DNA of 64,000 nucleotides, from IMG/VR virus record IMGVR_UViG_3300037847_007805, positions 15,410 to 79,409 of that record. The stretch is one strand, 5' to 3'. This DNA comes from a virus. Both the position numbers and the translations under genes were made by a program. Below, in pieces: positions 42 through 37,726 of the stretch; position 1 is the stretch's first letter, and each line of letters starts with the position of its first letter. Below the pieces are notes generated by a model. The model had not been told where the DNA came from, did no database searches, and worked only from the letters and a program-made list of their open reading frames with translations.

Positions 42-1589
42 ATGAATAGAACCAATTACATATACTATTCTTTTGACCCCGTTAAAGATATAATGGCGGG
101 TATGAAAACTGTTGAAGATAGAAATTTAGAAAGATGGACAACTCTAAGAAAAATTCAAGCAGATAATTCAAAACAATGGGAAGATACTAACTTTTCAGGA
201 AGAAAAATTGGAAGTAAGGATTCTGTAGAAAAACAATTTGACCTTGAAGATGGTCTTTCAAAATTTATAAGCACTCGACTTTTAAAACAACTTGAAGATG
301 CTTATGATACTGTTTTATCTGAAGTGGATTTGGGCGGTAATATACTTCCAAGCAGAATAAAATTTTCTTCTAAACCCATGGGTATTTTTGACTTTGGTCA
401 AGCATCAAAAGGTTTAATTAGACCTGTAGAGTTTTTTTCTACTGTAGACAATAAAATAATAAACCCTAAAGTGGTCAATAAAGAAACTAAAGGTGGTGAA
501 AATTTATTTTATTACTTGAAAAAAACAGAAAAGATTTATGTTCAAAGAAGGCAAGAGGGTACAACTAAAATGGTTGATAATTGTCCTGAATTGGATATAA
601 AACAAAATAATAAACTAAAACTATTTTTACCTTACAGGGGAAATGAAATAGTAAATGAATGTAAAGGATTTAGATTGAGGTACACCTCTACGAACCCCAA
701 AGTTTATGCATATAGAGAAAAATTAGGTGGGGGAACAACTCCGTATGTTGATTTATATATAGCGATGGGGGGAGTATATGACCAAAACCCTGAATCAATG
801 TCTATTAGAAGCGTACCTAACTTACTTTTAGCAAGAACTCTTGAAAACGCAGGAGTTAAAGTAAGAATTTTTGGTTTGTGGAGTACGGGAAATAGGAATG
901 ATATTTTCTCAATCGCTTTGCTTATAAAAAATTATGGTGAATCAGTATCTACAAACCAATTAGCTATTTTATGTGCTGATACAAGGTTTTACAGATATTG
1001 GCTTTCTATTTCAGCTAAAGGTATGATATATGATAAATTTGGTGTAGAAAAACCTGTCTTTGAAGGTACGGGTACTTTGAGAACTGAAGATATAAATGAT
1101 TATATAATGCCAAGATTGAGAAATTTCACATTGTATAATATACAAGACGGAAAATTTCCTTCACAGCTTGTAAATAAACGACTAATAGTATTTGTTCCTC
1201 TTGATGCAGATTCAGACGATAAAATTGATAGTGAAGAAGTAAGAAAACAAATTAAAGAAACTTATACAAAATTTGTAGATTATATATGTTTAGAGTTTTC
1301 GATTAACCCTGCTAAAGTAATTAAAGATATTCGAGTAAGACAGAATGAAGAAGGAATGAGTGCGAGTGAAACAAAAAGATATTTAAGAGAAGCTATTGCA
1401 AACGTATATAAAACAACAAGAGAATATAAGGGTAGTGATTTAGAATTGACAGATTCTGAAAAAATAGAACAAGCTGATAATATATTAGATAAAGAAAATC
1501 AATATATATTAGATACTCAAGATGGATATGAAGATACTGAAAAGAGTAGGGAAAAATTATTTGAAATTATAAACAAAACAATAAAATGA
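42..1589 (+). CDS. Putative vWA-like protein of the type partnered with MoxR/CobS AAA ATPases
   Basis: VDLYIAMGG...LARTLENAGVKVRIFG resembles phage vWA-like strand-helix-strand segments; MIDAS motif degenerate. Confidence 0.4.
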   Translation: MNRTNYIYYSFDPVKDIMAGMKTVEDRNLERWTTLRKIQADNSKQWEDTNFSGRKIGSKDSVEKQFDLEDGLSKFISTRLLKQLEDAYDTVLSEVDLGGNILPSRIKFSSKPMGIFDFGQASKGLIRPVEFFSTVDNKIINPKVVNKETKGGENLFYYLKKTEKIYVQRRQEGTTKMVDNCPELDIKQNNKLKLFLPYRGNEIVNECKGFRLRYTSTNPKVYAYREKLGGGTTPYVDLYIAMGGVYDQNPESMSIRSVPNLLLARTLENAGVKVRIFGLWSTGNRNDIFSIALLIKNYGESVSTNQLAILCADTRFYRYWLSISAKGMIYDKFGVEKPVFEGTGTLRTEDINDYIMPRLRNFTLYNIQDGKFPSQLVNKRLIVFVPLDADSDDKIDSEEVRKQIKETYTKFVDYICLEFSINPAKVIKDIRVRQNEEGMSASETKRYLREAIANVYKTTREYKGSDLELTDSEKIEQADNILDKENQYILDTQDGYEDTEKSREKLFEIINKTIK

Positions 1590-2449
1590 TAGGATTAGAT
1601 GGATTAGCATATATTGATAAAGAAATTAACCCTGTAATTGTTGTCGGTTTAGTTGATTTTATAGATAAGAAGTATTTAGTTCTAAATACTCCACCTCTTA
1701 ATGGCGAATTTGGGAGTTATTTTTCTGAAACATATAATAATATAGATTCGATTATGAGGGCTTGTGAATTGTCTGTATTATCACAAGAGGAAATAATTAG
1801 AAGGGACGATAATTCTTCTATTGTATGGGGTACAAGGTCAAATGAATTAGATTTAGGCGATATTGTTTTTTATAATTTTAAAAAATATACGGTTATAGGA
1901 CGGGTCTTAAACACCTATGCTCAACTTAATATACAAACTCCTGTTTTATTTAGTATGGACAGAATGTTTGAGGAATATAAAAATTTATTGTATTCAAAGT
2001 ATTCAGATGATGAGATACTAAATATAATTAACGATAAGCTAAAAGGGGGGGAATACAAAGATGATTTTGTATTGCCTTTTACTAATTCTGAAGATGAAAA
2101 CTCTTGGGGTGAAAAAATCAAATTAGTTAAAAATTATAATAGGGAAGCCTATTCAAAAATTATTCAAAATTTAAATGATAGATATTTTGAATTTGAAGAA
2201 AAAAGGCAAACTAAGGATTTTTTAAAGGACTTTTTATTAACTCGACAAGATGAAAAATTAGAAATTTTAGCAGATAGAAAGCCTGAATTTTATGAATCGT
2301 TTGTGAGGCTTATCAACGTAGTAAACAACAAAATATATAGTCAAGAAAAAGGAATGGCTCAAGTCGAACCTGAAATTCTTGATTTTGAAAAAATGATGGA
2401 AGAAGAATTAGATTTTGAATCATTAATGGAAGAACAACTTGGGGAATAA
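1586..2449 (+). CDS. Hypothetical protein
   Basis: 287-aa ORF, ATGA overlap with upstream gene, acidic C-terminus. Confidence 0.6.
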   Translation: MIGLDGLAYIDKEINPVIVVGLVDFIDKKYLVLNTPPLNGEFGSYFSETYNNIDSIMRACELSVLSQEEIIRRDDNSSIVWGTRSNELDLGDIVFYNFKKYTVIGRVLNTYAQLNIQTPVLFSMDRMFEEYKNLLYSKYSDDEILNIINDKLKGGEYKDDFVLPFTNSEDENSWGEKIKLVKNYNREAYSKIIQNLNDRYFEFEEKRQTKDFLKDFLLTRQDEKLEILADRKPEFYESFVRLINVVNNKIYSQEKGMAQVEPEILDFEKMMEEELDFESLMEEQLGE

Positions 2450-2479: not shown

Positions 2480-5400
2480 ATGAGTGCAAAAGCAAAATAC
2501 GAAAGTTTAGATAGAAGTAAATTGGACAAAGGGGTTCTAAAACTTCTCGATGTTATGAAGAAAAAAACAGACAACTTTGAAAACAAAGAAGTTGTAAAAG
2601 CATCTAAAGTAGAAGGTGCTTTGGATAAGCTGATAGCTAAATATCCTGATGCTGTTAAAAAGTCAAAGCCAAAAGCTAAAGCCAAGCCAAAAGCAAAGGC
2701 GAAAGCAAAAGCTAAATCTACAGGTTCTCCTAAAAAAGAAACTGTAATGACTGTGGCTAAAAGAATTAGAAAGGACGGAGAAAAATGGCAAGATGCACTC
2801 AAAAGAGCCAAAGCAGAAATGGGTAAAGAAACCAAAAAATCTAAATCTGCTGTTGAATCTGAAATGGATAAATTAAAGAAACTAATTGCCGAAGATAGTG
2901 TTCTAAAAGGATTTCAAAAATCTGACTTACAAAGAGATTCTGTAAGAAAAGCTAAACCAAGAGGAAAAAGAAAATCTACTACCAAAGGTGAAACTACTAA
3001 TCAATATGGTACATTCAAAAATAAAGTTGGTAGACCTTATTGGGAAAGCAGAGAAAATCGTTCTGATAGATATGCACCAAAATATCCTGCTAACAAACCA
3101 TTTTTAGAAGATGGTGGAGTAATTGTAGGTGGTTCAACAGTTCTTAGAAACAATGCCGATATAATGGATTTAGGAATTGCTAATTCTGATGCTGTATTTA
3201 AGCACGGTGGGGCAATACATAAAATGAGAAAAGAAAAAGATATTGACATTTACGAAGAACAAATGAAACATGGTGGTAAAACGCATGGTTCAGATTGTGG
3301 CTGTAAAACCTGTATGGAAAAAGGTGGTATGGTTGAGTATGCTATTTTAGAAGATTATGATGGGAATGACATAGAAAAAATGAAGTTTCCAAAACCAATA
3401 ATTGAAAGTGAAGTAGTAGAGCCAATGGGTTATTCATTAGCTGATATTGAGGAAGATGAAGATGGAGTTCTTTATGCAAGATTTCAGCAAGATGATGAAT
3501 TTGCTAAAGGTGGAAGAATGAAGCAAGGTTACAATGACCGATTAGACGAAAGTTTAGGTATGCGTGATGGTGTCGAACCTATGATGATGCAATCTTACAA
3601 AGACCGTAGAGATGAATCCAAAGGAATGGAAAAAGCTATGGGTCGTAGAGCATATCAATCGGTTGGCACAATGGATAAAATGGGTCATGGTGGTATGATG
3701 CAAGGTTACAACGATAGATTAGATGAAAGTTTAGGTATGCGTGATGGTGTCGAACCTATGATGATGCAATCTTACAAAGACCGTAGAGATGAATCCAAAG
3801 GAATGGAAAAAGCTATGGGTCGTAGAGCATATCAATCTGTGGGTACTATGGACAAAATGGGCATGGGTGGATATTTATTAGCGGGTGGCACAGGTGCTTA
3901 TTTAGGTGCTAAATATCCTGATAAAGTAAAAAAAGTAACTGACCCGTTAGATAAAGCTGTTGAAGATATAAATAGAAACTTAAGAAATAGATATGAAGAT
4001 GGCGGACTTGTAGTAGGTGGCTCAACAGTCCTAAGAGATAACGGAGATATTATGCCCTTGGGAACTGCTAATGCCGATGCAGTATTTCAGACAGGTGGAG
4101 TTACAGCCCAAACTGTTGTAAACCCAAATGAAGCGATGGCTGATTTACAAAGCACTTATGGTTTTGATGATGTTTATGCTAAAGGTGGGAAGATAAAAAT
4201 TAGGAATGGCAAGGTAGTAAAAACCGATATAATTCACGAAAAGGAATCGTTAGGTTTGCCATTTCGAATTGTTTATTCTAAATTTTTAAGAGCAAATGAT
4301 ATTTCTGAATCATCTTTGTCATTGGCAGATTCACTTGAACTTGAAACTATTGCGTTAAATGAGTGGGAAAAAAGTAATAAAACCTACGCTAAAGGGGGTT
4401 ATATTGTTGAATGGTATGAAAATGACCAAAATAATTTTGAATACTTTGATAGCAACGAACTTAATGAGGCAAAGGACTTCTATAAATTTATTAAAGACGA
4501 AAAATTCTATTACGAGAAACCTAAAGTGGTTTTAACTTCAAGAAGTGATGGAGAAGTATTAATGGGTAAAAAATTTGCTAAAGGTGGTAAAATTGATGTA
4601 AGTAATTATAAAATCAATTATTTTGAAACTGAAAGCGATAGAGATAGTGGCGAATCTCAACAATTTGATTCTTTTGAAACTGATTATGATGCTTTCATAA
4701 ATGATGCAAGACGTTTATATAAAAGAGATGGAATGGAAGCTGTTGAGGTTTTAAACGAAAAAGGAGAAACAGTCGTAATTTTTGATAATGACACTCCCGA
4801 TGGAGAATTTTATATGACTAAACCTTCCAAAAAATCTTCTAAATTAGAAGTTGGAGAATTTCAAGTAGGCAAAAGGGTAGGATTTATAAATACTCCACAC
4901 GATGAAAGAGTTGGTGAAATTGTGGGAGAAGAACAGAATGGTAAATACCCTGTTAAATTAAAAAGCAAAATACACCAAGGATTTGAAGATAGAAAAGGTG
5001 AGCCAAAACTCATAAAAAGAGAGAACTTAATTAGATTATATAGTAGATGGGACGAAAGGGAAGAATTGGAGAAAAAATTTGATAGCGAAATGAAAAGAAT
5101 TTCACCTAAACAAATAGATAGGATTAAAAAAGAGTATGAAAAATATGAAGATATGCTCTCTCCTAAAAGGGATAATCCCGAATTTCAGGAATTTTTTGTC
5201 AGAGAATCCCAAAAAATATCCATGGCTAAAGGTGGGAAGATTGATAATATGATAGGTAAAAAAGTTAAAGTTGATTTCAGAAAAGAGGTAGGCAAAATAA
5301 TAAATATAGAAAATGATGATGTTACTGTTTTTTATCCTGAATTGGGATTTTCAGAAGTATTAGATGCTAAAGCAGTAGAAATTGTTTTTTTACCAAATAA

Positions 5401-6595
5401 ATTCGCTAAAGGTGGGGAGATTGATGGATTTACTATGAGCATGGTCAAATCAAGTGGAGATGTTACAAAAGTTGAAACCGAAGATGCTAAAATCAAAATG
5501 GCTAAAGGTGGTATAGTAAAAAACCAAGATGAAAACCATTTATTGCGAACTGCAATAGGTTATTCAATAAGTAAAGGTAATCTTGATAAAGAAGATAGAA
5601 AAAAATTAACTGAAATATACAATAGGTTAGTTAGTTCAAAATTTCATTATGCTAAAGGTGGTAAAGTTGATGACTTAGGAAACCCAACAGACCCAAAAGT
5701 CATTTCACAAATGGAAAAATTTATAAAAGAAAAAATGCCTAAATTGGATAAGGATAGATTTTTTACAGATGGAATGAAAAGAAAAGAAGCAAAAAGAATG
5801 TTCTATGAAAAATATGGTTATGGTGCTTATAACCCAAGGTTTTCAATTTTTGAAAAAGGTGGAAGGACAATGTATGATGCACCACCAAGTAAAATAGGTA
5901 AAGTGAAATTTTCTTTAGCAAAGGGTAGAGATTTTGACATAATTGTTCCTGAAGGTAAATTCAGGATTTTACGAATCCCCCCTTTTGATTTACCAACAGA
6001 AGTTGTCGATATGAATAAAGGAAAAAATTTCCAAAAAACTCCCGTAAATGATAGTAAAATTGCTCAAAAATATCAAAAAGAAATTCAAGAGTATTTAAAT
6101 ATGGATAGTACAAGATTTGAAAAAGGTGGTAAAATAGGATTTGAAGCATTGTCAAAAAAAGTTGCTAAAAGATATGTTGGCAAAAAAGTTCCTAAAAAAT
6201 TCCAAAATCAATATGGTAAAACATATAGTCCTGCCGAAGCAAAAGAAGTTGGAGATAAAGTAGCAGGTGCAGTATACAGAATGCAACAGGCTAAAAAAAT
6301 GGCTAAAGGTGGTAAAACACAAGGGTACAATGATAAACTTGATGAAAGTTTAGGAAACACCAAAGGGAAGCGTTCTACTAAAGAGCAAAACTATAAAGAC
6401 CGCAGAAATGAATCCGAAGCAATGGAGAAAAAGGGCGGTAAAAGAAAGTATGCCCGTGTGAAAACAATGGATAAAGGTTCAAGAAAAAAGAAGCCAAATA
6501 GCTTTTTTGCTGTTGTAAAAAGAAAGCAGAAAAAAGGAGAGGCTTGGCAAGATGCTATTCAAAGAGTAAAAAAAGAAATGAAAATGAATAAATAA
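2480..6595 (+). CDS. Large Lys-rich modular protein punctuated by [FMYL]xxGG motifs; candidate core/cargo polyprotein
   Basis: About 19 motifs such as FAKGG, MAKGG, YAKGG, FEKGG separate unrelated modules; basic termini share GE[KA]WQDA. Confidence 0.6.
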   Translation: MSAKAKYESLDRSKLDKGVLKLLDVMKKKTDNFENKEVVKASKVEGALDKLIAKYPDAVKKSKPKAKAKPKAKAKAKAKSTGSPKKETVMTVAKRIRKDGEKWQDALKRAKAEMGKETKKSKSAVESEMDKLKKLIAEDSVLKGFQKSDLQRDSVRKAKPRGKRKSTTKGETTNQYGTFKNKVGRPYWESRENRSDRYAPKYPANKPFLEDGGVIVGGSTVLRNNADIMDLGIANSDAVFKHGGAIHKMRKEKDIDIYEEQMKHGGKTHGSDCGCKTCMEKGGMVEYAILEDYDGNDIEKMKFPKPIIESEVVEPMGYSLADIEEDEDGVLYARFQQDDEFAKGGRMKQGYNDRLDESLGMRDGVEPMMMQSYKDRRDESKGMEKAMGRRAYQSVGTMDKMGHGGMMQGYNDRLDESLGMRDGVEPMMMQSYKDRRDESKGMEKAMGRRAYQSVGTMDKMGMGGYLLAGGTGAYLGAKYPDKVKKVTDPLDKAVEDINRNLRNRYEDGGLVVGGSTVLRDNGDIMPLGTANADAVFQTGGVTAQTVVNPNEAMADLQSTYGFDDVYAKGGKIKIRNGKVVKTDIIHEKESLGLPFRIVYSKFLRANDISESSLSLADSLELETIALNEWEKSNKTYAKGGYIVEWYENDQNNFEYFDSNELNEAKDFYKFIKDEKFYYEKPKVVLTSRSDGEVLMGKKFAKGGKIDVSNYKINYFETESDRDSGESQQFDSFETDYDAFINDARRLYKRDGMEAVEVLNEKGETVVIFDNDTPDGEFYMTKPSKKSSKLEVGEFQVGKRVGFINTPHDERVGEIVGEEQNGKYPVKLKSKIHQGFEDRKGEPKLIKRENLIRLYSRWDEREELEKKFDSEMKRISPKQIDRIKKEYEKYEDMLSPKRDNPEFQEFFVRESQKISMAKGGKIDNMIGKKVKVDFRKEVGKIINIENDDVTVFYPELGFSEVLDAKAVEIVFLPNKFAKGGEIDGFTMSMVKSSGDVTKVETEDAKIKMAKGGIVKNQDENHLLRTAIGYSISKGNLDKEDRKKLTEIYNRLVSSKFHYAKGGKVDDLGNPTDPKVISQMEKFIKEKMPKLDKDRFFTDGMKRKEAKRMFYEKYGYGAYNPRFSIFEKGGRTMYDAPPSKIGKVKFSLAKGRDFDIIVPEGKFRILRIPPFDLPTEVVDMNKGKNFQKTPVNDSKIAQKYQKEIQEYLNMDSTRFEKGGKIGFEALSKKVAKRYVGKKVPKKFQNQYGKTYSPAEAKEVGDKVAGAVYRMQQAKKMAKGGKTQGYNDKLDESLGNTKGKRSTKEQNYKDRRNESEAMEKKGGKRKYARVKTMDKGSRKKKPNSFFAVVKRKQKKGEAWQDAIQRVKKEMKMNK
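3524..3870 (+). repeat. Tandem 177-bp (59-aa) duplication within the 1371-aa ORF
   Basis: QGYNDRLDESLGMRDGVEPMMMQSYKDRRDESKGMEKAMGRRAYQSVGTMDKMG occurs twice; divergent third copy near 6320. Confidence 0.9.
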
Positions 6596-9155: not shown

Positions 9156-9575
9156 ATGAAAAGAAGCGGTAGAAAGAGTAAGGCTCAAACTCCTGCACCC
9201 CGTAAAGACAGAATAAAAGGTTCAAAAACCAATGTCAAAGGTAGTGCTAAAAGTCGAACCTCTGCTCGTTCTATCAAATTTTCTGATTCAACTTTAAACT
9301 CTATAAAATCAAAACTAAAAGAATACAATGCTAAAAATCCAAATAAAAAAATTTCCCTACCAACTGCAAAAGCTGTTGTTAGAAGGGGAATGGGTGCATA
9401 TTCTACATCTTACAGACCCACGATAAGGGGTGGTAAACCAAATAGTAGGAATGCATGGGGTCTTTCAAGGTTGTATGCTTTTATGAGAAAAAAAAGTCGT
9501 TCTGAATCCGCAAAAGGAGTTGTTCCAAAAAGAGCAATTAAAAAATCTTATGTTCAAGATAATGATTTATTATAA
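9156..9575 (+). CDS. Basic protein, DUF5824-like (recalled similarity)
   Basis: AVVRRGMGAYSTSYRP...AWGLSRLYAF pattern. Confidence 0.45.
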   Translation: MKRSGRKSKAQTPAPRKDRIKGSKTNVKGSAKSRTSARSIKFSDSTLNSIKSKLKEYNAKNPNKKISLPTAKAVVRRGMGAYSTSYRPTIRGGKPNSRNAWGLSRLYAFMRKKSRSESAKGVVPKRAIKKSYVQDNDLL

Positions 9576-9868
9576 TGGGTTACAGAATTACAGATTATAC
9601 AAAACAACAAGCTAAAAAACTTGGTGTTGAAGTAAAGCCTTCTAAAACGAAAGGTAAAAAAATAGATGTCTTTAAAAAAGGCAAAAAAGTTGCTTCTGTA
9701 GGTGCTATAGGATATAAAGATTTTCCTACTTACTCAAAACTTGAAAAAAAAGGTATATATGAAAAAGGGTATGCTAATAAAAGAAGGAAACTTTACAAAA
9801 TAAGACACAAAAAAGACAGGAATGTTAAAGGTAGTGCAGGTTACTACGCAGATAAATTATTATGGTAA
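9575..9868 (+). CDS. Basic protein, DUF5754-like (recalled similarity)
   Basis: KKIDV...GAIGYKDF...RRKLYKIRH...GYYADKLLW pattern. Confidence 0.5.
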   Translation: MGYRITDYTKQQAKKLGVEVKPSKTKGKKIDVFKKGKKVASVGAIGYKDFPTYSKLEKKGIYEKGYANKRRKLYKIRHKKDRNVKGSAGYYADKLLW

Positions 9869-15127: not shown

Positions 15128-15820
15128 ATGTCAAATGTACGCAGATATTTAGCAAATGCACAGAGAATGGCAAACGAATCTTTCTCTAATGCAGATGGTT
15201 TCATTGATGATGATTTGTCTTTCACAGGCGAAGATTTTTTCAGTGCTAATGGAGTAGGCGGTGGTTCAGCACCAACTTCTCAACCATATATTGTTACTGT
15301 AACTTCTACATCAGGAAGTGCTGTATCAAACTTTAAGGTGCTTGGTTCTTACGAGTATCTTAACAATTCAGGTTTCACCGCAGGTGGCGACCTTGTAATT
15401 GGTTCAATCACTATTTCAAGTGGAATTTCAGGTATCACATACCGTGAAATGTTGTACCAATTTATGAACAATCCGTATAGTGTAGGACTTACTTATGTAC
15501 AGTCAGCTACAGCTAATCAGATTTTGGAAACTATTTCTGTTAATACAAGAGATGCTAACGGTAATGAAGCACAAAAAACACTTGTGCCAACAATCGACCC
15601 GTATCAGCAACAATCTACAGTATTAGCTATGAAATATGCTTACCGAATTGATGGTTTCACAAAACTAATCATTCGTCAGATTTTAGCTAACGCTACTGTT
15701 AAATTGTACTTCTACCCATCTGACAACATTAACCTTGCAAGAGGTCTTGCAGGACAAAATGTTTCTCGTCAGTACGGAAACCCAGGCATTGTAAAAGCAC
15801 AAACTATCAAATTAACATAA
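15128..15820 (+). CDS. Candidate major capsid protein, probably single jelly-roll
   Basis: Beta-rich and soluble; follows the packaging ATPase; flanked by a promoter element and a strong terminator; frequent TTC/AAC/CGT codons suggest high expression. Confidence 0.6.
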   Translation: MSNVRRYLANAQRMANESFSNADGFIDDDLSFTGEDFFSANGVGGGSAPTSQPYIVTVTSTSGSAVSNFKVLGSYEYLNNSGFTAGGDLVIGSITISSGISGITYREMLYQFMNNPYSVGLTYVQSATANQILETISVNTRDANGNEAQKTLVPTIDPYQQQSTVLAMKYAYRIDGFTKLIIRQILANATVKLYFYPSDNINLARGLAGQNVSRQYGNPGIVKAQTIKLT

Positions 15821-15860
15821 TTAGATAGTTAATGCTTAACAATAGTATTGGATAATTAAC

Positions 15861-15896
15861 AAGGGGCGGATTGATTTATTCAACTTGCCCCTTTTT
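15861..15896 (+). terminator. Intrinsic terminator after the capsid candidate
   Basis: AAGGGGC...GCCCCTT stem running into a T tract. Confidence 0.8.
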
Positions 15897-15910
15897 AAAA
15901 TTTAAAAACT

Positions 15911-16276
15911 ATGGACGTATATAATTATGTAGCAGGTGCATCACCAATTAAAGCACAGGGTATTATAAACAGCTTTGGATATAAAGTCGTAGATAAAAAC
16001 GATATGGGTGGAAACCTTAAGTCGCTTGTGGCAAAAGAGGGAGAACCCGCACTTAAAATGATATTAGAATCACACCCTGATAAAGATGTGATTTTAGAAC
16101 TTTACGGAACTTCTGAAGGGGAGTGTAAAACCTGTAGAGATTCACAAATTATAGAAAAATTTTTAAACGCAAGTGGTAAAGAGCAAAGCGAGGCTAAAAA
16201 AAGTGATAATAACTTTTCATTAGTTTTCCTTGCAGGTATTTTGGCATTATCATTTGCAATCATTTCAAAAAAATAA
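15911..16276 (+). CDS. Virion membrane protein with C-terminal anchor and FLNASG motif
   Basis: Helical N-domain; FSLVFLAGILALSFAIISKK. Confidence 0.65.
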   Translation: MDVYNYVAGASPIKAQGIINSFGYKVVDKNDMGGNLKSLVAKEGEPALKMILESHPDKDVILELYGTSEGECKTCRDSQIIEKFLNASGKEQSEAKKSDNNFSLVFLAGILALSFAIISKK

Positions 16277-16279
16277 AAA

Positions 16280-16951
16280 ATGGCTCGATTTAACAAATTA
16301 GGACAAGCTATTGGTATTGCCATTTCAAAAGATGAGCAGGGAATAAGAAATTTGCTTCAAAGAAACGGTGTATCAACAGCTAACATAAAAACTAAAAACC
16401 AACTTGCAGATGTTTTTGTAGAATCACTTGTCGCATCTAAAGGTTTGGCTCAAGATTTTTCAAACTATGTAAAATCTAAAGATAATGTAAACTTCATGTA
16501 TAATAATGCAGGTGGAATGTATAACAACATGACATTAGAAATGTCATCTTTTGCAAGTGTTGTTGGTGATGGAGTGCCTGATGCTTATAATATGACGGGA
16601 GATGAATCAAATACTAACATTTGGTCGCCTTCAGGAACAAGCACTTCAGTAAATGCTGATGGCGAAAATGAAGAAGAAAAGAAAAAAGGTGGATTTTTTG
16701 AAGGAATAACCTTAAAAGAAATACTTAATCAAGCTAAAGATATTTACTTAGCTGATAAAAATGATTCAATCGCAAGACAAGAAACAGAACAAATAAAGAC
16801 AATAGCTAACACGCAAATCAATAACGATAATTTTTCACCTAACAGAACTTCTCCTGAAAAAAAATCAAACACAGGACTATATATTTTCCTTGGTGTTTTA
16901 GGATTAGCAGTCGTTGGTGGGGTTATTTATTTCGTATCAAAAAAGAAATAA
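16280..16951 (+). CDS. Virion membrane protein with C-terminal anchor and YNNAGG motif
   Basis: DEQGIRNLLQRNG domain shared with neighbours; LGVLGLAVVGGVIYFVSKKK. Confidence 0.7.
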   Translation: MARFNKLGQAIGIAISKDEQGIRNLLQRNGVSTANIKTKNQLADVFVESLVASKGLAQDFSNYVKSKDNVNFMYNNAGGMYNNMTLEMSSFASVVGDGVPDAYNMTGDESNTNIWSPSGTSTSVNADGENEEEKKKGGFFEGITLKEILNQAKDIYLADKNDSIARQETEQIKTIANTQINNDNFSPNRTSPEKKSNTGLYIFLGVLGLAVVGGVIYFVSKKK

Positions 16952-16952
16952 T

Positions 16953-17552
16953 ATGGCAACACAAGACCAATTACGTCAATTAGGAAATGCTGTAGGATTT
17001 TTGTCAGTAGCTGATATTCAAGGGCTTTCTAACCTTTTAGCTAAATATGGCAATATGCCTGATAACATTTCTTATCAAAGTTTGAATAAAGCAACAATAG
17101 AATCTTTATCAAACCGAAATTTTTACCAAGAATTTTTAAGATTAGTTTCTGCTAATGTAAAAGAGGTTGCTCAAATTAACCAATTCAGCAATGTAGCAGG
17201 TGATACGGTTGCAACTACCCCTGCAACCACTCCCGCTTCAACGGGTTCAGGCTTTTTTTCAGGGTTTAACTTAAACACTCTAATCGGTCTTGGAACTACT
17301 ATTTACGCAACTGAATCAGCAGGAAAACAACAAGACAGGCTGTTAAATGCTCAAGCTAATCAACAAGCACAGCAAAACCAAGATACGATTATGGCAGGTC
17401 AATTAGCTTTAGAAACCGAAAAATTAAAACTTGCTCAAATTCAGGCGGGTGGTGGACAAGGCGGTGCTAACAACACTATGCTATATGTAGGATTAGGTAT
17501 ATTAGGATTACTTGTAGTTGGTGGAGTTATTTACGCAGTAGCTAAAAAATAA
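16953..17552 (+). CDS. Paralog of 16280 protein with FSNVAG motif
   Basis: LGNAVG...DIQGLSNLLAKYG; GILGLLVVGGVIYAVAKK; start moved to ATG 16953. Confidence 0.7.
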   Translation: MATQDQLRQLGNAVGFLSVADIQGLSNLLAKYGNMPDNISYQSLNKATIESLSNRNFYQEFLRLVSANVKEVAQINQFSNVAGDTVATTPATTPASTGSGFFSGFNLNTLIGLGTTIYATESAGKQQDRLLNAQANQQAQQNQDTIMAGQLALETEKLKLAQIQAGGGQGGANNTMLYVGLGILGLLVVGGVIYAVAKK

Positions 17553-17555
17553 TAT

Positions 17556-17783
17556 ATGAAAAGTCCAAAAGAGATAGTTGAAGATGTTTCTTCAATGACC
17601 GATGAAAAGAAAAGAAAAGCATTTATGGTAAAAGCACAGTCAAGTGTGCATGGTGCTTTTTGGGGTGGTGCTTTTGGTCTTATGTTCGCTTTTTATAAAG
17701 GCAAAAATAAATATACAAGTGCCTTATTAGGTGCGGGTATTGGTGCGTTAGTGTCGAACCTTTTAACCGTTGAAAAAAAATAA
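17556..17783 (+). CDS. Glycine-zipper two-TM membrane protein
   Basis: GAFWGGAFG and LLGAGIGALV. Confidence 0.65.
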   Translation: MKSPKEIVEDVSSMTDEKKRKAFMVKAQSSVHGAFWGGAFGLMFAFYKGKNKYTSALLGAGIGALVSNLLTVEKK

Positions 17784-17787
17784 AATT

Positions 17788-18060
17788 ATGATAAATCCCG
17801 AAAGAAAGTATACGTTTGGCGACCCCAAGAATAAAAGTCAATTTTTTATAGATAATAATGTGACAATTTTACCTGTTAGGGGTGATAGAATGACAAAAGA
17901 GGAACAAAAAGCTAAAATAGAAGAAGAAAAAATAAAATTACAGGCAAGTCAAGATGAAAAGAAAATAAAGGAAAAAATCAAAAGAAATAAAAATGTTCTT
18001 ATATATGTGGCTGTAGCAGTAGCAGGTTTCTTTGCTTATAAAAAATTATTTAAAAAATAA
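17788..18060 (+). CDS. Small protein with C-terminal anchor
   Basis: VLIYVAVAVAGFFAYKKLFKK. Confidence 0.65.
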   Translation: MINPERKYTFGDPKNKSQFFIDNNVTILPVRGDRMTKEEQKAKIEEEKIKLQASQDEKKIKEKIKRNKNVLIYVAVAVAGFFAYKKLFKK

Positions 18061-18403
18061 AGTTATGAGAAAAATGAGTAAGGAAGCACAATTAGAACGC
18101 TTAAGAAAAAAATTAGCAGAATTTGAGGCTATCATGCAAAAAGGCGGTAAAGTTCAAGGTACTGTTGATAGTTTAAGAAAACAAATTGCTGTTTTAGAAC
18201 AAGCAACTTCAAAAAGCGACAAAAACATTGACTTAAGCAATTTAAAACCTGTCGGTGGTTCTGACACAGAAAAAGAAGTTTTTGAAATGCAAAGACAAGA
18301 ATTTGAAAAGGAAAAAAAGAAAGAAAAAAATAAAAAAATTCTTTTATACGTTGCCCTTGCAGTAGCAGGTTTCTTTGCTTATAAAAAATTATTTAAAAAA
18401 TAA
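18016..18403 (+). repeat. Identical 45-bp direct repeat (18016-18060 and 18359-18403) encoding the membrane-anchor end of two genes
   Basis: gcagtagcaggtttctttgcttataaaaaattatttaaaaaataa occurs twice. Confidence 0.9.
18065..18403 (+). CDS. Coiled-coil protein with C-terminal anchor
   Basis: ILLYVALAVAGFFAYKKLFKK. Confidence 0.65.
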   Translation: MRKMSKEAQLERLRKKLAEFEAIMQKGGKVQGTVDSLRKQIAVLEQATSKSDKNIDLSNLKPVGGSDTEKEVFEMQRQEFEKEKKKEKNKKILLYVALAVAGFFAYKKLFKK

Positions 18404-18829
18404 ATGATGCATCATTCAGATTACATGGAAGATTTTAACAATGCTATGGGTGGAAATTATAATTTCGGACTACATGGTTTTAAGCCTTCAAAAGGTAGTT
18501 TACTAAATACTTCTGTATTGGATAAAAAATTACGAGGAATTAGTGATAGTAGTGAATTGAAATCTGATGTCCAACCATCTGAAGAAGAATTACAAATGCA
18601 AGAAAAATATATGCAAGAGTTGATAGATGCAAATAAAAAATATCGTGCTACTTTAATTGGTGGTAGGATAGGAAGTTCTTTGGGCTTCATTGTAGCTTTA
18701 GGCTACGCTTTTAAAGTAAAGTCAGGATTTTGGAAAGGTTGGGGTTATACAATCTTGGGAAGCATGGCTTTAGGTGGATTAGGGGCAGGAGTAGGTTTTG
18801 CTATTGATTCATCAAAGAAGAATAATTAA
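18404..18829 (+). CDS. Two-TM glycine-rich membrane protein with FNNAMG motif
   Basis: GGRIGSSLG...KSGFWKGWGY...GGLGAGVG. Confidence 0.65.
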   Translation: MMHHSDYMEDFNNAMGGNYNFGLHGFKPSKGSLLNTSVLDKKLRGISDSSELKSDVQPSEEELQMQEKYMQELIDANKKYRATLIGGRIGSSLGFIVALGYAFKVKSGFWKGWGYTILGSMALGGLGAGVGFAIDSSKKNN

Positions 18830-19097: not shown

Positions 19098-19361
19098 ATG
19101 GAAAAGTCAGCAAATCAATTATGGAGAGAAAGCGGTACTTCATTATCTTTTAAAGATTGGATTCAAAGAGAGAAAGATAAAGGTGTACAAATAAAAAACA
19201 AACTCCTTGAAAATGTTGTCGATTCGTTTAAAGAAACTGACGAACAAGACACAATAGATACAACAAGGTTTGCCTTTGGAATACCAAAATGGGTAGTTTA
19301 TACAGGTGTTTCAATTTTAACCTTTGCTGTTGTATATAAACTTTACAAAGCCAAAAAATGA
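19098..19361 (+). CDS. Small protein with C-terminal anchor
   Basis: GIPKWVVYTGVSILTFAVVYKLYKAKK. Confidence 0.65.
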   Translation: MEKSANQLWRESGTSLSFKDWIQREKDKGVQIKNKLLENVVDSFKETDEQDTIDTTRFAFGIPKWVVYTGVSILTFAVVYKLYKAKK

Positions 19362-20146
19362 ATTTAAGGATTAATACCCGATATGAAGAACTATCCTTGG
19401 CTATATATGTACAAACACTTGCACCCTGCAAAATCAGGATAAAAGTTTTTGATGCAGAACAGCCTAAAACTGTTTTTACCGACAGGTATAAAACCGTAAA
19501 AGGAAAAGAGGTTTTTTATGTCAGAATGCCCTTAACTTCAAGCAAGGTAATTGTAAGCATATACAACGAAGCTGTTGGAAATAAAAGGAAAGGCGAAGAT
19601 AGTAGCTTTATTGTTACAGAGGTCAAAAAACTTCCGTTGCAAAAAAGAACAGATGTTGGCGATATAAAAGATTATACCGTTTCAGCTTTTGTAGATTTTG
19701 CACAAAGGTTTTCATTTAATGCCTCGTATTTAGACGACAATAAAACTTATCAGAGCCAAAGCGGAGAGTTTTTGATAGAGTATTTACCAAATATAGTTAG
19801 TTCAAAAACAGGGAAAAAAATGAAAACCCCTGCTCGAATTTCCAAAGTAAATGGTAGAATACAAGTATCAAAAGAAGCGTTTGACACATATACTGTACCT
19901 ATGCGTATGGCTATATTGTTACACGAATTTTCCCACTTTTATTTAAATGATAATATGGACGATGAGGTTGAAGCTGACCTTAATGGTCTTTTAATCTATT
20001 TAGGCTTGGGCTATCCAAGGATAGAAGGTTATCAGGCTTTTTTAGAGGTGTTTCAAGAAAGTCCATCACAACAGAACAGAAACCGTTATGATATTATAAA
20101 TAAATTCATAAGGGATTTTGAGAATAATAAAATGGTAATGAATTAA
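19358..20146 (+). CDS. Zincin metalloprotease (HExxH); candidate maturation protease
   Basis: ILLHEFSHF followed by DEVEAD third-ligand motif; located in the structural block. Confidence 0.7.
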   Translation: MNLRINTRYEELSLAIYVQTLAPCKIRIKVFDAEQPKTVFTDRYKTVKGKEVFYVRMPLTSSKVIVSIYNEAVGNKRKGEDSSFIVTEVKKLPLQKRTDVGDIKDYTVSAFVDFAQRFSFNASYLDDNKTYQSQSGEFLIEYLPNIVSSKTGKKMKTPARISKVNGRIQVSKEAFDTYTVPMRMAILLHEFSHFYLNDNMDDEVEADLNGLLIYLGLGYPRIEGYQAFLEVFQESPSQQNRNRYDIINKFIRDFENNKMVMN

Positions 20147-24643: not shown

Positions 24644-27600
24644 ATGAGCATTCAGGTATCTTTAGCCAACGATATTAAAGTCGTTCAGGGCAATGGTTTA
24701 GCTATCTTTTTAGATAGTGATACAAACCTTTTAACCCTGAAAGATACTAATGGGTGTGTTCAAGCCCTCGACAGTTATATATTACAAGAGGGGATTACTG
24801 AAATTATAGCGGGTTGTTGTATAACAGGTGGTGGCACATCTGCAATAGTTACAATTAATCACGCAGACACTTCTTCATTAGATGGCGATTATGGTGCTAC
24901 AGGTTCTCAAAATGGCTGTTACATCAAATCTGTTACAGTTGATGGTCTTGGACATTTAACAGGTGTAACAAGTGCTAATTTTGATACAAGATATTTAGGA
25001 ATTTGTGCTTGTGCTTGTGATTCAGCTTCGTTAAACGCTTTAGACCCTGATTACTATTTAAACTTTTGTAATTTTTTCAATGTCCCACCATTAGGAGATA
25101 TAACTGATGTTGTTGCAGGAGATGGTTTAGGCGGTGGTGGTTGTTGTGGTTGTATTACTTTATGTAACACAGATAAAGGTTCAGACCAAGCAATTATAAA
25201 AAGAATTGCAGATAATTCTTCAACAGTATTTACAGCTTCCACCAATAATGATTTGTTTTGTATTGTTGGAACAGGGGCTATAAGCACATCTATAAGTGGA
25301 GATACTTTAACAATATCTTCTTCAACTGTTGCTAATAATTGTCAAATTGAGGTTTCGGCAGGTACAGGTTTAAGTGGTGGTGGCTGTTTTAACTTAAATC
25401 AAAGTTCTAATTGTACACTTACTATTAATAACTGCGATAGAGGTTCACAGCAAAATATATTTAAAAACATTGCTGTATCAGGACAAAATACAATTATTGC
25501 AGGTTCAAATACAGCCACATTAACTTTAGTTGAGGGTGCTAACATTGATATTACTACTTGTACTACTGATGGTTCGGTAACAATAAGCAGTACACAGTCA
25601 GCCCCAAATAATTGTCAAATACAAATTACAGGCGGAGATGGGCTTGGGGGAAGTGCAACCTTTACTTTAAATCAAGCAACAAATGGTAGTTTCTCACTTT
25701 GTAATACAGACAAAGGTTCTGACCAATGCTTTTTTCAAAACATTGCGGTTGTTGGTTCATGCACGATAACAGCAGACAGTAATGCCGACACCGTTTGTTT
25801 ATCAGCAGGAACAGGAATTACTCTAACCTCTGACAGTTCTCAAGATTTAATTACGATAGGTACTACAGCTACAGGCTGTACAGGAACAGTAACCGAAGTA
25901 TGTGTACAAAGTGGCACAACAGGTTCTGATTTTAATGTTTCGGGTAGCCCGATTACAACTTCAGGAACAATTACTTTAAACTTGCCCATAGCAAGTGCGA
26001 CCAAAACAGGTAAATTATCATGCACAGATTGGGCAACATTTAATAGTAAAACGTCATGCACAGGAACAGTAACAAGCGTAGGGTTCTGCACAGCAGAAGG
26101 GGGAACAGATGTCAATGTATCAGGAAGTCCGATAACGTCAAGCGGGGACATAACATTGAACATACCGATTGCAAGTGCAACAAAAACAGGTAAATTATCA
26201 TCAACTGATTGGAGTGATTTTGATGCAAAAGTAGATGATGTAACAGCAGGTTCAGGTATTGCGGTAAGTGGAACTGATACTATTGAAGTAACAAATACTG
26301 ACAAAGGTTCAGACCAATGTATATTTAAAACATTTGCAGTTTCAGGACAAAATGATATTGTAGCTGATTCAAATAGCGACACGCTTACTTTTGCAGGTTC
26401 AGGTATTGCAATTACAACTGATGATGCTACAGACACCATTACATTCACCGTTACTGATGCAGGTGGTACGGTTACAGAGATTTGTGGTGCAGTAGGAACA
26501 ACGGGAACAGATTTTAATGTTTCAGGAAGTCCAATCACGACAAGTGGAACTCTAACCTTTAACCTTCCTGATGCGAGTGCAACCTCAAGAGGTGCATTAA
26601 CAAGTACAGATTGGAGTACATTTAATTCTAAAACAACTTGCACGGGTACAGTAACAAGTGTCCAAATTGGTGGGGGAGAAGGAATTGTAGCCACAGGAAC
26701 TAATCCTGTTACAACAAGTGGTACTATAAATCTTGCAGTTTGCCTTAATGAATTAACAACAACAACAGATAATGATTGCGGTTGTTATTTTGCTGTAGTA
26801 GATTCTTCAGGTGTACAAAGTAAACTTTGTAAATCAAACATAAATAATTCAGGATTCAACAATGATGCGGGATATACAACCTGTACAGGAACTGTATCGA
26901 GTGTAGGATTGTCAGCAGGAACAGGAATATCTGTTTCAGGAAGCCCCGTTACGGGAAGCGGAACTATGACGGTTACAAATACTGACCGTGGTTCTTCTCA
27001 ATGCATTTTTAAATGTGTGGCTGTTTCAGGACAAACAACAATAGAAGCTGATAGCAATGCCGATACATTAACCTTTGCAGAGGGAACGGGTATTACTATA
27101 ACAACTGATGATTCAACAGATACTATTACGATTTCAAATGAAGGTGCAGACGGAACAGTTACTTGTATAAATTTTGCTACAGATGAATCGGGTACTAATG
27201 TAGGGGTGTCAGGTGTTCCGATTACAACAAGCGGAACAATAACTTTATCTATACCTGAAGCAAGTGCTACTTCTACAGGTAAACTTACTGCAACTGATTG
27301 GAGTACATTCAACTCTAAAACCACTTGTACGGGTACTGTAACAAGTGTTGGTCTTACAACGGGAACAACAGGGACAGATGTAAATGTTTCAGGAAGCCCC
27401 GTTACAGGAAGTGGTAATATAACTTTAAATATACCTACTGCAAGTGCTACAAAGAGAGGTGCATTATCCTCTACTGATTGGAGTACATTTAACTCCAAAA
27501 CTACTTGTACAGGTACAGTAACAAGCGTGGGTCTTGCTACTGATGAAACGGGAACAGACGTAGCTGTATCGGGAAGCCCTGTAACGGGAAGTGGAGATAT

Positions 27601-30600
27601 AACGCTTTCTATTCCTGTGGCAAGTGCAACTAAAACAGGTAAATTATCAAATACAGATTGGACTACATTTAATTCTAAAACAACCTGTACAGGAACTGTA
27701 ACAAGTGTTTCAGGCGGGGCAGGTTTAACGGGAACTGTAACAACTTCAGGCTCTATTTGTGTTGATTATGCAGGTGCAGATAATATAATTTTAGCAAGTC
27801 CTTGTACAGCTACAGGCACATTAGATGTCGATGACTTTATTATGATAAATAATTGTAACACAAATAATGTTACAAAATCAGCTATATCTAATTTACCTTT
27901 CTCAAATTGTTCAGGAACTGTTACAAGCGTAGGTTTAACCACAGGAACAACAGGTACTGATGTAAATGTATCGGGAAGTCCTGTAACGGGTAGTGGGGAC
28001 ATTACCTTAAATATACCCGATGCAAGTGCAACCTCAAGGGGTGCTTTAACAAGTACAGATTGGTCTACATTTAATTCAAAAACGACTTGTGTTGGTACGG
28101 TTACAAGCGTAGGTATTACAAGTGGTGGTGGATTAAGTGTTTCAGGTAGCCCTATAACTACAAATGGAGATATAACTGTTACAAATACAGATAAAGGTTC
28201 TGACCAATGCATATTCAAAACTTTTGCAGTTTCAGGTCAAGATGATATTGTAGCCGATTCTAATAGTGATACTGTTACTTTTGCAGGTTCAGGTATTGCG
28301 ATTACAACCGATAATACTACAGATACAATAACATTTACAGTTACCGATGCAGGTGGTACGGTTACAGAGATTTGTGGTGCGGTTGGAACTTCAGGAAGTG
28401 ATTTTAACGTAACAGGAAGTCCAATAACGACAAGCGGAACTCTAACCTTTAACCTTCCGACAGCGAGTGCAACAAAACGAGGTGCTTTATCAAGTTCAGA
28501 TTGGACTTCATTTAATTCTAAAGTAGACGATGTAACCGCAGGTGCAGGTATAAGTGTAACAGGTTCGGGTACTAAAACCGTTACAAATACAACCTGCATA
28601 TTTAAAAATATAGCTTCAACAGGTCAATCCACTTTAGTTGCAGACAGCTTGACTGATACGGTAAATATAGAATCAGGAACAGGGATTTCTATAACTACAG
28701 ATGATACTACTGACACCTTAACTATAGCAAACACACTTAGTGTATCTGATTGTACAATCTGTATTCAAGCAGGTTCAGGTCTTGGTGGTGGTGGAGATTT
28801 TACCTTAAATCAAAGTTCAGGTGAAACTGTAACTTTAACAAATGCTGACAAGGGTTCTTCCCAATGCATTTTCAAAAATATAGCTGTTTCAGGTCAAAAC
28901 ACAATTTCAGCAGACAGCAATGCCGACACACTTACTTTTGCAGGTTCGGGTATAGCAATTACAACTGATGATAGTACAGACACGGTTACGTTTACAGTAA
29001 CAGATGCAGGTGGTACAGTAACCTGTATAAATGCAGTTGCTTGTAATACAGGTTCAGATATTTCTGTTACAGGAGTTCCAATTACCACAAGTGGAGAAAT
29101 ATGTATTAACATACCGACAGCAAGTGCAACTAAACGAGGTGCTTTATCATCTACAGATTGGTCTACATTCAATAGCAAAACAGATTGTACGGGTACAGTT
29201 ACAAGCGTATCGGGTGGAGTAGGTCTTACAGGAACAGTAACAAGTTCAGGAAATATAAATGTAGATTACTTAGGTACAGACAATATAATTTTATCAGCTA
29301 CAAATTGTGAAGGTGCTTCAGCTTCTTCAGGATTTACATTACTATTAAATGATGATTCCACTTGTAATGTCGGAAGATATGAATTAAGTGATTTACCATT
29401 TTCAAATTGTGGTGGAACTGTTACAAGCGTAGGTTTAACAACTAACGAATCAGGAACAGATGTTTCAGTATCGAACAGTCCAATTACAAGTAGCGGGGAT
29501 ATTACCCTATCAATACCGATTGCAAATGCGACCAAAACAGGTAAATTATCTAATACAGATTGGAGTACATTTAACGCAAAAACTACTTGTGTTGGAACAG
29601 TAACAAGTGTAGGAATTACAAGTGGCGGGGGCTTAAGTGTATCAGGTAGTCCGATTACAACAAACGGTGATATAACCGTAACAAATACAGATAAAGGGTC
29701 TGACCAATGTATATTTAAAAATATAATAGTTTCGGGTCAAGACACTATATCTGCCGAAATAAATGATGATAGCTTAACCCTTATTGCGGGTACAAATATG
29801 TCTATCTCAACAAATTGCACTTTAGATTCAATAACCTTTGCTTCGACAGGAACAACTTGCACAGGAACAGTTACAAGTGTTGGGCTTACAGCAGGTACAG
29901 GAATATCTGTTTCAGGAAGTCCAATTACAAGTAGTGGCTCTATTACAGTTTGTAATACTGATAAAGGTTCAGACCAATGCATATTTAAAACTTTTGCGGT
30001 TTCAGGTCAAGATGATATTGTTGCTGATTCAAATAGTGATACTCTTACTTTGGTAGGTTCAGGAATTGCAATCACAACTGATGACACAACCGATACAATT
30101 ACTTTTACTGTAACTGATGCAGGTGGAACTGTAACTTGTGTTTGTACTACAGCACCTTTAACAGGGGGTAATTTTTCTACTACGGGTACAATAGGTATTA
30201 CCGAAGCAGATTCAACAACAGATGGTTATTTATCATCTACAGATTGGAATACATTTAACGATAAAACCGATTGTACAGGAACTGTTACAAGCGTTGGACT
30301 TACAGCAGGTTCAGGTATTTCTGTTTCAGGAAGCCCTATAACAGGAAGTGGGTCTATAACTGTTACGAACTCTGACAAAGGTTCTGACCAATGTATGTTT
30401 AAGTGTATTGCTGTAGCGGGACAAGATACTATTGTAGCTGATAGTAACACCGATACTCTTACAGTTGTCGGTGGAAATAATATATCAGTTTTAACAAATG
30501 CCACAAGTGATACTCTAACTATTTGTACTATATCTACATCATGCACAGGTACTGTTACGAGTGTTGGTCTTTGTACGGGTACTGCGGGTTCAGATGTAAA

Positions 30601-37414: not shown

Positions 37415-37726
37415 ATGGCAAAAAAGATTCAAGAAACACAAAAAATTGAAAAAGAAGAACTTAAGGAGTTACAAGAATTAGTAGGTGCTACTACTGATGC
37501 AAACAACAGGATTGCACAACTTTGTCTTAACAAAGAAAGAACTTTTAGAAATCTTCAAAAGGAGTTTGATGAGAGCATGGAACTTATTGAACTTCAAATA
37601 AAAGAAGCTAATGAAAAGCAAGTTGAATTTGTTAAAGAATTAGACAGCAAGTACGGTCAGGGCAAAAGCTATGACCTATCCACAGGGGAAATAAAAGATG
37701 TGGAGAAAAAAGATGAAAGTAATTGA
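37415..37726 (+). CDS. Coiled-coil protein, possible fibre chaperone
   Basis: ELDSKYG...DLSTGEI terminal motif of the kind seen next to phage fibre genes. Confidence 0.5.
   Translation: MAKKIQETQKIEKEELKELQELVGATTDANNRIAQLCLNKERTFRNLQKEFDESMELIELQIKEANEKQVEFVKELDSKYGQGKSYDLSTGEIKDVEKKDESN

Follow-up and report, generated by a model that had tools for sequence, protein, structure and literature searches.

Polyvalent proteins are multi-effector proteins that are predicted to be packaged and delivered together with DNA (Iyer, Burroughs, Anand, de Souza and Aravind 2017; PMC5512222). Such cargo is an arsenal that enters the cell before any gene expression, and its diversification is poorly understood. 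In the present work, we analyzed a polyvalent cargo protein gene, here called P0001, in a 64,000-nucleotide stretch of viral DNA (hereafter, the window) spanning bases 15410-79409 of IMG/VR record IMGVR_UViG_3300037847_007805; the whole record of 79.4 kb is linear according to IMG/VR and has a CheckV completeness estimate of 100%. P0001 encodes a string of exchangeable modules whose borders are marked by a short Gly-Gly motif, hereafter the joint. What is new relative to polyvalent proteins is this architectural rule of one joint conserved both as protein and as DNA: it was not found in the papers searched, and literature searches on AKGG in phages, on Gly-Gly in polyvalent proteins, and on non-tailed marine Bacteroidota viruses yielded no description of the joint.

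Polyvalent proteins (PMC5512222) and proteins of the P0001 kind are both large chains of unrelated small domains in a virion context. Their architectures are extremely mosaic, and a zincin-like metallopeptidase is the proposed processing enzyme in the two cases. However, the text of PMC5512222 contains no glycine or linker motif, whereas the junctions of P0001 all use one motif and an 11-nt seam. Moreover, the zincin discussed here is a separate gene and not an embedded metallopeptidase, there is no MuF or portal fusion, and the virus of P0001 appears to lack the hallmark genes of tailed phages.

A Gly-Gly motif with an upstream bulky residue is likewise found at virion-internal module borders in adenovirus (adenain) and in pp220 and pp62 of African swine fever virus (ASFV; pS273R). 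These systems also resemble P0001 and its virus, as predicted here, in having basic DNA-binding pieces and an internal membrane or core, and would be its nearest functional analogue if cleavage occurs. In contrast, no clan-CE protease was found here, the candidate enzyme is a gluzincin, the host is bacterial, and the combinatorial shuffling of cassettes seen in the P0001 family is not a feature of adenovirus or ASFV polyproteins. P0001 is thus not a member of the adenain/pS273R systems, though it may work like them.

In phage T4, the capsid-targeting sequence is removed by the gp21 prohead protease. Like P0001 as envisaged here, the T4 internal proteins and Alt are packaged in the head and injected together with the DNA; among these effectors is an ADP-ribosyltransferase, and they carry an incorporation signal at the N-terminus and are cleaved during maturation (PMC5512222). 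They are, however, separate small proteins with LxE/IxE sites and a serine protease, and have neither a multi-cassette chain nor a standard seam. A further parallel is offered by polymorphic toxins, in which VENN (CdiA) and DPxGL (Rhs) mark the border of the exchangeable module and supply homology, the Rhs motif being also a cleavage site; these secreted bacterial weapons carry one variable C-terminal toxin, whereas P0001 has about 20 borders in a viral cargo protein. Finally, the crAss-like cargo (crAss001 gp45/C1, PMC10172136) consists, as is predicted for P0001, of virion-stored, ejected proteins of Bacteroidota viruses, but gp45 contains only four hxxGG among its 21 GG, has no dense motif, belongs to a tailed lineage, and shows no sequence similarity to P0001.

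P0001 and Its Homologues Are Built from Exchangeable Cassettes

The P0001 protein (1371 aa, 156 kDa, pI 9.4) is rich in Lys. An earlier note on this DNA had described it as a chain of modules separated by about 19 [FMYL]xxGG motifs; the open reading frame (ORF) is intact and all 19 motifs that were listed are present. The regular expression itself matches 21 times, LLAGG and LVVGG being included, whereas 5000 shuffles of P0001 averaged 1.9 matches and reached at most 10, and the spacing between motifs defines modules of 5-216 aa. At the family level, 2202 GG sites gave the consensus K-[YFM]-A-K-G-G-[KE]-[ILVT], in which the bulky residue at -3 was Y/F/M/L in 73% of the sites, positions -2 and -1 were Ala and Lys in 49% and 51%, respectively, and +2 was I/L/T/V in 72%. 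Nearly all of the 120 homologues listed contain 8-25 motifs, or about one per 75 residues. When a stricter motif was searched within the 79.4-kb genome, 19 copies were found in P0001 and five in a 1239-aa polyvalent protein encoded upstream, a few small virion-block proteins contained one copy each, and the same distribution was observed in two complete relatives.

A total of 236 metagenomic homologues of P0001 were detected at E <= 1e-3. Typically, only about 5-10% of the length was matched, at about 70% identity, which corresponds to single modules. Many of these homologues contain RelA_SpoT, Zeta_toxin/AAA_33, or other domains, and those sharing the end modules of P0001 contain RelA_SpoT, Zeta_toxin/AAA_33, PF18905, and PF10123, whereas P0001 itself is devoid of Pfam or PHROG domains: scans of P0001 and five neighbours against both collections returned nothing for P0001. 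Similarly, no match was obtained with phmmer against PDB sequences or with tblastn against 50,697 phage records (E <= 1e-3), and the largest module (aa 704-919) had no match in the ESM Atlas. The 1239-aa protein, located 4.6 kb upstream of P0001, contains ART-PolyVal (E 6.2e-8) and RelA_SpoT (E 1.5e-14) domains with FEKGG between them. By its context and its relatives, P0001 can be placed in the polyvalent virion-cargo protein family, as ART-PolyVal, RelA/SpoT, and zeta-toxin domains are found in these relatives and in the product of the neighbouring gene.

When each P0001 module was searched separately, its homologues began right after Gly-Gly and stopped at the next motif. Cutting 121 proteins at the motif produced 1922 segments that fell into 443 module families of near-fixed lengths (one family had 28 aa in all of its 94 instances), and many of the modules were only 17-36 aa long. 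One basic family of about 218 aa occupied the first position in 87 of 87 cases and a 59-aa module was present once per protein, while positions between the end modules were variable. Module order was highly shuffled, one family having 61 different left and 30 different right neighbours, and most modules from the variable region of P0001 were common to only 3-12 homologues. The 'QGYNDRLDESLG' family (59-63 aa) is widespread, with 164 instances in 107 proteins, at one to four per protein and mostly in last place. As claimed in the earlier note, internal duplications start and end at motifs; these are a 177-bp period repeated 2.0 times in tandem (3518-3866, 93% matches, detected by TRF) and the pair aa 214-244 / 515-540.

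Ungapped homology breakpoints were found within -8 to +4 aa of a joint in 42-44% of cases, compared with 16.5% for random positions. The clearest case is contig L003, which is 94.9% identical to the window over 5.7 kb downstream of the cargo gene and whose copy of this gene is a patchwork relative to P0001. All 10 internal ends of blastn high-scoring pairs (HSPs) between the two genes fell within -17 to +5 nt of a joint in both genomes (probability by chance, about 3e-9). HSPs started 15-17 nt before the last base of the joint, which is the first codon of the motif, and ended at -1 to +5 nt from this last base. One cassette held another place in the order, and the two copies differ by no fewer than four replacements, insertions, or deletions of cassettes. 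Modules are thus gained, lost, and moved at the motifs, in agreement with the cassette-like, expandable cargo protein envisaged earlier, and the joints are the borders of real, exchangeable cassettes across more than 100 homologues.

The N-terminal module of P0001 is a candidate DNA-binding or incorporation anchor. A basic, helix-like motif of about 20 aa, [RK]K.GE.WQDA[LI].R.K.E, is common to this module (aa ~93-113, positions 2750-2830) and to the extreme C-terminus of P0001 (aa ~1345-1368, positions 6500-6580), and is also carried by the C-termini of many P0001 homologues.

The Joint Is Conserved as a DNA Seam

The 11-mer GCTAAAGGTGG occurs eight times in the window, always within the P0001 gene, versus 0.01 occurrences expected. 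Codon usage was analyzed at 85 [FMY]AKGG joints from 11 genes of different genomes. The Ala codon was GCT in 76% of the joints versus 33% in the background (p = 2e-14), the Lys codon was AAA in 100% versus 80% (p = 2e-8), and the first Gly codon was GGT in 91% versus 47% (p = 4e-16), whereas the second Gly resembled the background. Dipeptide controls outside joints showed no such bias, with the exception of a milder GGT preference in GG. The joint has, therefore, the nucleotide form GCT AAA GGT GG, a level of conservation that the earlier note had not anticipated. This conservation at synonymous sites, together with the breakpoints located on joints, shows that the joint works as a short homology seam, by which cassettes are exchanged in frame. 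A RecT-family annealing protein and an exonuclease, both encoded in this genome, may take part in this exchange. We regard the cassette and seam part of our explanation as very probably correct.

Two other roles of the repeated sequence were considered and dropped. An internal Shine-Dalgarno-like function of the 11-mer was discarded, since Shine-Dalgarno-like sites are present in only 5% of genes, and internal translation starts at joints were discarded as Met is not favored at the bulky position, where Tyr and Phe are equally frequent.

The joint marks every module border and is the place at which modules are exchanged even between nearly identical genomes, which provides an explicit and testable rule. 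By cutting at the joint, one can also parse in a simple way hundreds of module families that lack annotation, candidate anti-defence effectors among them, in a very abundant and uncultured group of aquatic viruses, and the joint represents a natural design principle for in-frame domain shuffling.

The Joint May Also Be Recognized at the Protein Level

The variant joints FEKGG, YEDGG, MGHGG, FKHGG, and FQTGG retain hxxGG without the 11-mer, and both the bulky residue and the aliphatic residue at +2 stay the same in kind even where their codons differ. The motif was also reported by the earlier note outside P0001, as FEEGG in the protein encoded at 10954 and as FDEGGII at the end of the 45477 protein, and both were confirmed. 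The former (Table 1) is a membrane protein that is unrelated to P0001 and non-modular, and among its orthologues Gly-Gly was found in 30 of 30 and hxxGG in 28 of 30, in the same column, 8-20 aa before the helix. Judged from this alignment, its motif looks like a leader-peptide site, and the protein would be a candidate second substrate or recognition target. The variant joints, the codon-independent flanks, and the presence of hxxGG in this membrane protein speak for a recognition of the joint as protein also.

The joints could be a repeated tag that is bound rather than cut by a virion component or a loading factor (inner capsid, membrane surface, or chaperone), so as to provide many contacts for incorporation into particles. 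The motif is indeed common to two polyvalent proteins and one virion-block membrane protein, and conserved genes for an AAA_5 ATPase and a DUF7192-like protein immediately precede the cargo genes. However, the invariant N-terminal module already resembles an incorporation signal, about 20 tags per chain would be unusual, and the AAA_5 protein matches a CobS-type family, so its synteny may be unrelated to cargo loading. We consider a binding tag improbable.

The loose regular expression is also matched by many L[TC]GGG repeats of a 3772-aa Cys-rich repeat protein (24644-35962, + strand; 152 Cys), which are unrelated to the cargo joint; only the C-terminal ~50 aa of this protein weakly match a tail-fibre connector PHROG.

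A Virion-Block Gluzincin Is the Only Conserved Candidate Protease

The resemblance of h-x-x-G-G to (M/I/L)xGG and LRGG-type sites would suggest that a clan-CE protease (adenain-, Ulp1-, or pS273R-like), or another Gly-Gly cysteine protease, either viral or from the host, cuts after Gly-Gly. The earlier note had proposed to look for an Ulp1/adenain-like enzyme and had drawn on adenovirus and ASFV as models. No such enzyme was found: a six-frame Pfam search of the complete 79.4-kb genome gave neither Peptidase_C5 nor Peptidase_C48 at E <= 10 (the C57 and C63 models were not searched separately), and the core shared by three complete genomes contains no Cys/His protease. The sites differ as well, since the adenain/pS273R consensus (M/I/L)-x-G-G|x has its bulky residue at P4, whereas in [YFM]-A-K-G-G this residue would be at P5 if the cut followed GG, that is, one position further from Gly-Gly. 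Assignment to the adenain/ASFV family is, therefore, not supported.

The genome does encode a papain-fold-like protein (39625-40074, + strand; 150 aa) with an H-box/NCEHF motif and a C-terminal membrane helix, which matches Pfam LRAT (E 2.1e-5, above the cut-off) and PPPDE/Peptidase_C97 (E 1e-4). This LRAT/PPPDE-like protein was rejected as the joint protease, as it is present only in this genome of six and absent from five of five relatives with motif-rich proteins; if the virion contains a membrane, this protein might act there as a lipid-modifying or papain-fold enzyme. Weak C97 matches in relatives were spurious, being located on the Walker A motif of an AAA_5 ATPase. An M23 peptidase, of a Gly-Gly-endopeptidase family (46871-47392, - strand; E 3e-28), was likewise rejected as the conserved enzyme because it is missing from five of five relatives. 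It is a stand-alone protein whose gene adjoins lysozyme and PG-binding genes, and is probably a lysis or entry enzyme. Taken together, cleavage after Gly-Gly by a clan-CE or similar cysteine protease appears very improbable.

The four genes just upstream of P0001 were excluded as Cys/His or zinc proteases, since their products contain no His at all. Nor does P0001 carry an embedded zincin-like domain, a frequent though not universal part of polyvalent proteins, as the protein gave no peptidase match in Pfam and has only 10 His in its whole length.

The only protease-like gene in the ~30-gene core of the three complete genomes encodes a stand-alone zincin (Table 1). It lies within the virion gene block, among virion membrane-protein genes, and was present in five of five related records, at 52-60% identity. 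In an alignment of 141 zincin sequences (35-68% identity), H189, E190, H193, E203, and D207 were the only invariant columns, and HExxH was found in 140 of 140 representatives. These residues correspond to the gluzincin signature HExxH + ExxxD, including the glutamate helix. The family is large and unannotated (more than 2600 clusters at 90% identity and at least 772 at 50% identity), and the protein falls below the Pfam thresholds of both M56 (13.8 bits, cut-off 31) and M48 (12.4 bits, cut-off 20.3), so that it is not a Pfam member of either family.

A first AlphaFold2 (AF2) model from six sequences was poor (pLDDT 64), and fold searches with it saw only the N-terminal beta-sandwich. Once remodelled with 141 sequences, the C-domain reached a pLDDT of 95.3. 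In VIA-align, the best match of the model was BepA (Z 8.6 over 122 aa, rmsd 4.2), followed by the M48-like peptidase 3c37 (Z 6.9), Ste24p (Z 6.7), ZMPSTE24 (Z 6.6), and proabylysin (Z 6.2); the five best are all M48 peptidases or minigluzincins, although with moderate Z values, and most of the other full-domain matches lower down are also zinc-dependent hydrolases. The top specific rows of Foldseek were minigluzincins and BepA, with weak E-values. The modelled fold is that of a zincin catalytic domain. The protein thus resembles M48 peptidases (BepA, Ste24/ZMPSTE24, HtpX) and minigluzincins (proabylysin, projannalysin, selecase) in HExxH + ExxxD, but differs from them in being soluble, in its N-terminal beta-sandwich, in having only nine residues between the second His and the Glu, and in being encoded by a virus among virion membrane-protein genes. 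These results leave the gluzincin as the only conserved candidate protease for the joints.

Cleavage at the Joints or Delivery as an Uncut Chain

P0001 opens with a very basic module, the candidate anchor, continues as a row of exchangeable cassettes, each linked to the next by the standard joint, and closes with C-terminal modules that are also basic. In the mechanism that we propose, the conserved gluzincin would cut at exposed joints during particle maturation or after delivery, releasing a strain-specific mix of small proteins and peptides and, in relatives, effector enzymes too, while the basic end modules would stay on the DNA. Zincins usually have a preference at S1'. Because of this, the bond cut by a gluzincin need not follow Gly-Gly and might instead be the one preceding either the bulky or the aliphatic residue. 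Prp-type F|A cleavage at joints was considered and dropped, as there was no evidence for it.

The same joints may, however, serve only as a seam and a hinge. Gly-Gly would then be the hinge, the flanking bulky and aliphatic residues would be the ends of module cores, the nucleotides would be the recombination seam, and the cargo would be packaged and delivered as an uncut, beads-on-a-string chain able to thread a narrow conduit. Several observations favor such a chain or weigh against cleavage. The joint is conserved in its nucleotides and the breakpoints fall on joints, and a DNA seam alone explains part of the motif conservation (A-K-G-G) without any cleavage. With a basic anchor at each end, the chain in its entirety would be held on the DNA. 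No Gly-Gly-type protease was found, and M48, M56, and minigluzincin enzymes are not known to be Gly-Gly-specific. The link between the zincin and the motif consists of their co-occurrence in the shared core genome. The motif expression is also matched outside joints, as by ILMGG in relatives, which is the strand before the Walker A motif of the zeta toxin. In addition, a second motif, [FY]xN[AVL]xG, was found 6-10 times per genome versus about three expected, in several membrane proteins and in the capsid N-arm, where each of the three complete genomes has it near residue ~19 of its capsid candidate (window 15128-18829, 37698-38246; orthologues in the relatives G002 and G004). This set would be an alternative substrate for the zincin and competes as its true target. 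Uncut delivery and partial unfolding of cargo also have precedents (PMC10172136, PMC5512222): several characterized polyvalent or cargo proteins, namely N4 vRNAP, TraC1, and ArdC, are delivered uncut (PMC5512222), and one crAss001 gp45 polypeptide was modelled as spanning the portal (PMC10172136).

On the other hand, a hinge does not need a consensus of 7-8 residues, and the variant joints retain hxxGG without the 11-mer. Moreover, the position of hxxGG is constant in a membrane protein that is neither related to P0001 nor modular, between a hypervariable leader and a transmembrane segment; many modules, at 17-36 aa, are too short to fold; and a conserved protease is encoded in the virion block. 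The long and specific motif, the conservation at this leader-membrane boundary, the short modules, and the protease speak for cleavage, the conservation at the boundary being the strongest of these indirect arguments. A search for proteins ending exactly in Gly-Gly, or for stand-alone modules, gave no decisive result. We hold the full statement, cleavage by the gluzincin included, as tentative, its chances being in our judgment slightly below even, while delivery as an uncut chain joined by seams and hinges is a real possibility that we would place somewhat lower. In its broadest form, in which a tailless, membrane-containing bacterial virus lineage uses a zinc metalloprotease to dice a combinatorial polyprotein at 11-nt/5-aa seams that double as recombination sites, the proposal is doubtful.

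If the zincin does cut the joints, polyprotein-type maturation would be described here for the first time in a bacterial virus of such architecture. It would involve a protease class different from that of the eukaryotic Gly-Gly systems and provide a functional parallel to adenovirus and ASFV with an unrelated enzyme, and it would amount to a plug-and-play packaging, release, and evolution of injected effectors and DNA-binding peptides.

Genomic Context of the Cargo Gene

The features discussed above are listed in Table 1.

Table 1. Position of P0001, its modules and seams, and two other virion-block genes in the 64,000-nucleotide window.
Feature	Position	Strand	Basis
Modular polyvalent cargo protein gene (P0001)	2480..6595	+	Intact ORF; 236 homologues; no Pfam/PHROG/PDB match of its own
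N-terminal module, aa 1-213, net charge +32, Lys/Ala-rich run	2480..3118	+	First module in 87/87 homologues having it; found in 107 subjects
Variable cassette region, 19 motif-delimited modules of 5-216 aa	3119..6130	+	Module-wise BLAST, clustering, architectures, L003 mosaic
Two tandem copies of the widespread 'QGYNDRLDESLG...' module, 59-60 aa, motif-bounded	3515..3871	+	TRF
Eight in-frame copies of the seam 11-mer GCTAAAGGTGG	3503, 4178, 4577, 5225, 5405, 5501, 5651, 6302 (span 3503..6312)	+	Exact matches
Conserved basic module, 61 aa in P0001	6131..6313	+	Single copy per protein in 86 homologues
C-terminal module: third QGYND-type module copy and basic tail, net charge +19	6314..6592	+	No joint motif after it
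110-aa virion-block membrane protein, FEEGG between a hypervariable Pro/Ala/Thr-rich leader and a membrane helix	10954..11286	+	Orthologue alignment
262-aa stand-alone gluzincin metallopeptidase, N-terminal beta-sandwich and predicted M48/minigluzincin-like catalytic domain	19358..20146	+	Conservation, AF2 fold

The cargo gene lies in a same-strand block in the order AAA_5 ATPase, 515-aa protein, 287-aa protein, cargo, small membrane proteins, 97-aa basic protein, and candidates for the packaging ATPase and the capsid. The synteny of the cargo block with these packaging-ATPase and capsid candidates was observed in up to 17 related loci and in three complete genomes, which places P0001 in the virion/late-gene context typical of polyvalent proteins. 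Among the PHROG families listed for 108 scanned ORFs (25 of 71 matched), there was no terminase, portal, or tailed-phage capsid family. Of 111 ORFs, only 5% are preceded by a Shine-Dalgarno-like core, and A makes up 49% of the 20 nt before the ORFs, as in Bacteroidota-type initiation. The virus is probably tailless and probably infects Bacteroidota. The complete 68.8-kb relative G002 (locus L005/L037-L040) is classed with inverted terminal repeats, so that the genome may be linear in this lineage, with ends replicated by protein priming or in a similar way.

The four His-free proteins encoded consecutively upstream of the cargo gene (L001:13237-15500, window 42-2449) are an acidic GE-repeat protein, the AAA_5 ATPase, and the 515-aa and 287-aa proteins, the first three of which are kept upstream of the cargo gene in relatives. 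The 515-aa protein is similar to DUF7192 clusters; for the AAA_5 gene, the match is to a CobS-type phage family labelled 'porphyrin biosynthesis'. The 97-aa basic protein (9575-9865, + strand), with a weak match to Pfam DUF5754 (E 1.7e-4), could be a core or DNA-binding virion protein; its gene is the most conserved small gene of the block, with 60-78% identity in 17 related loci.

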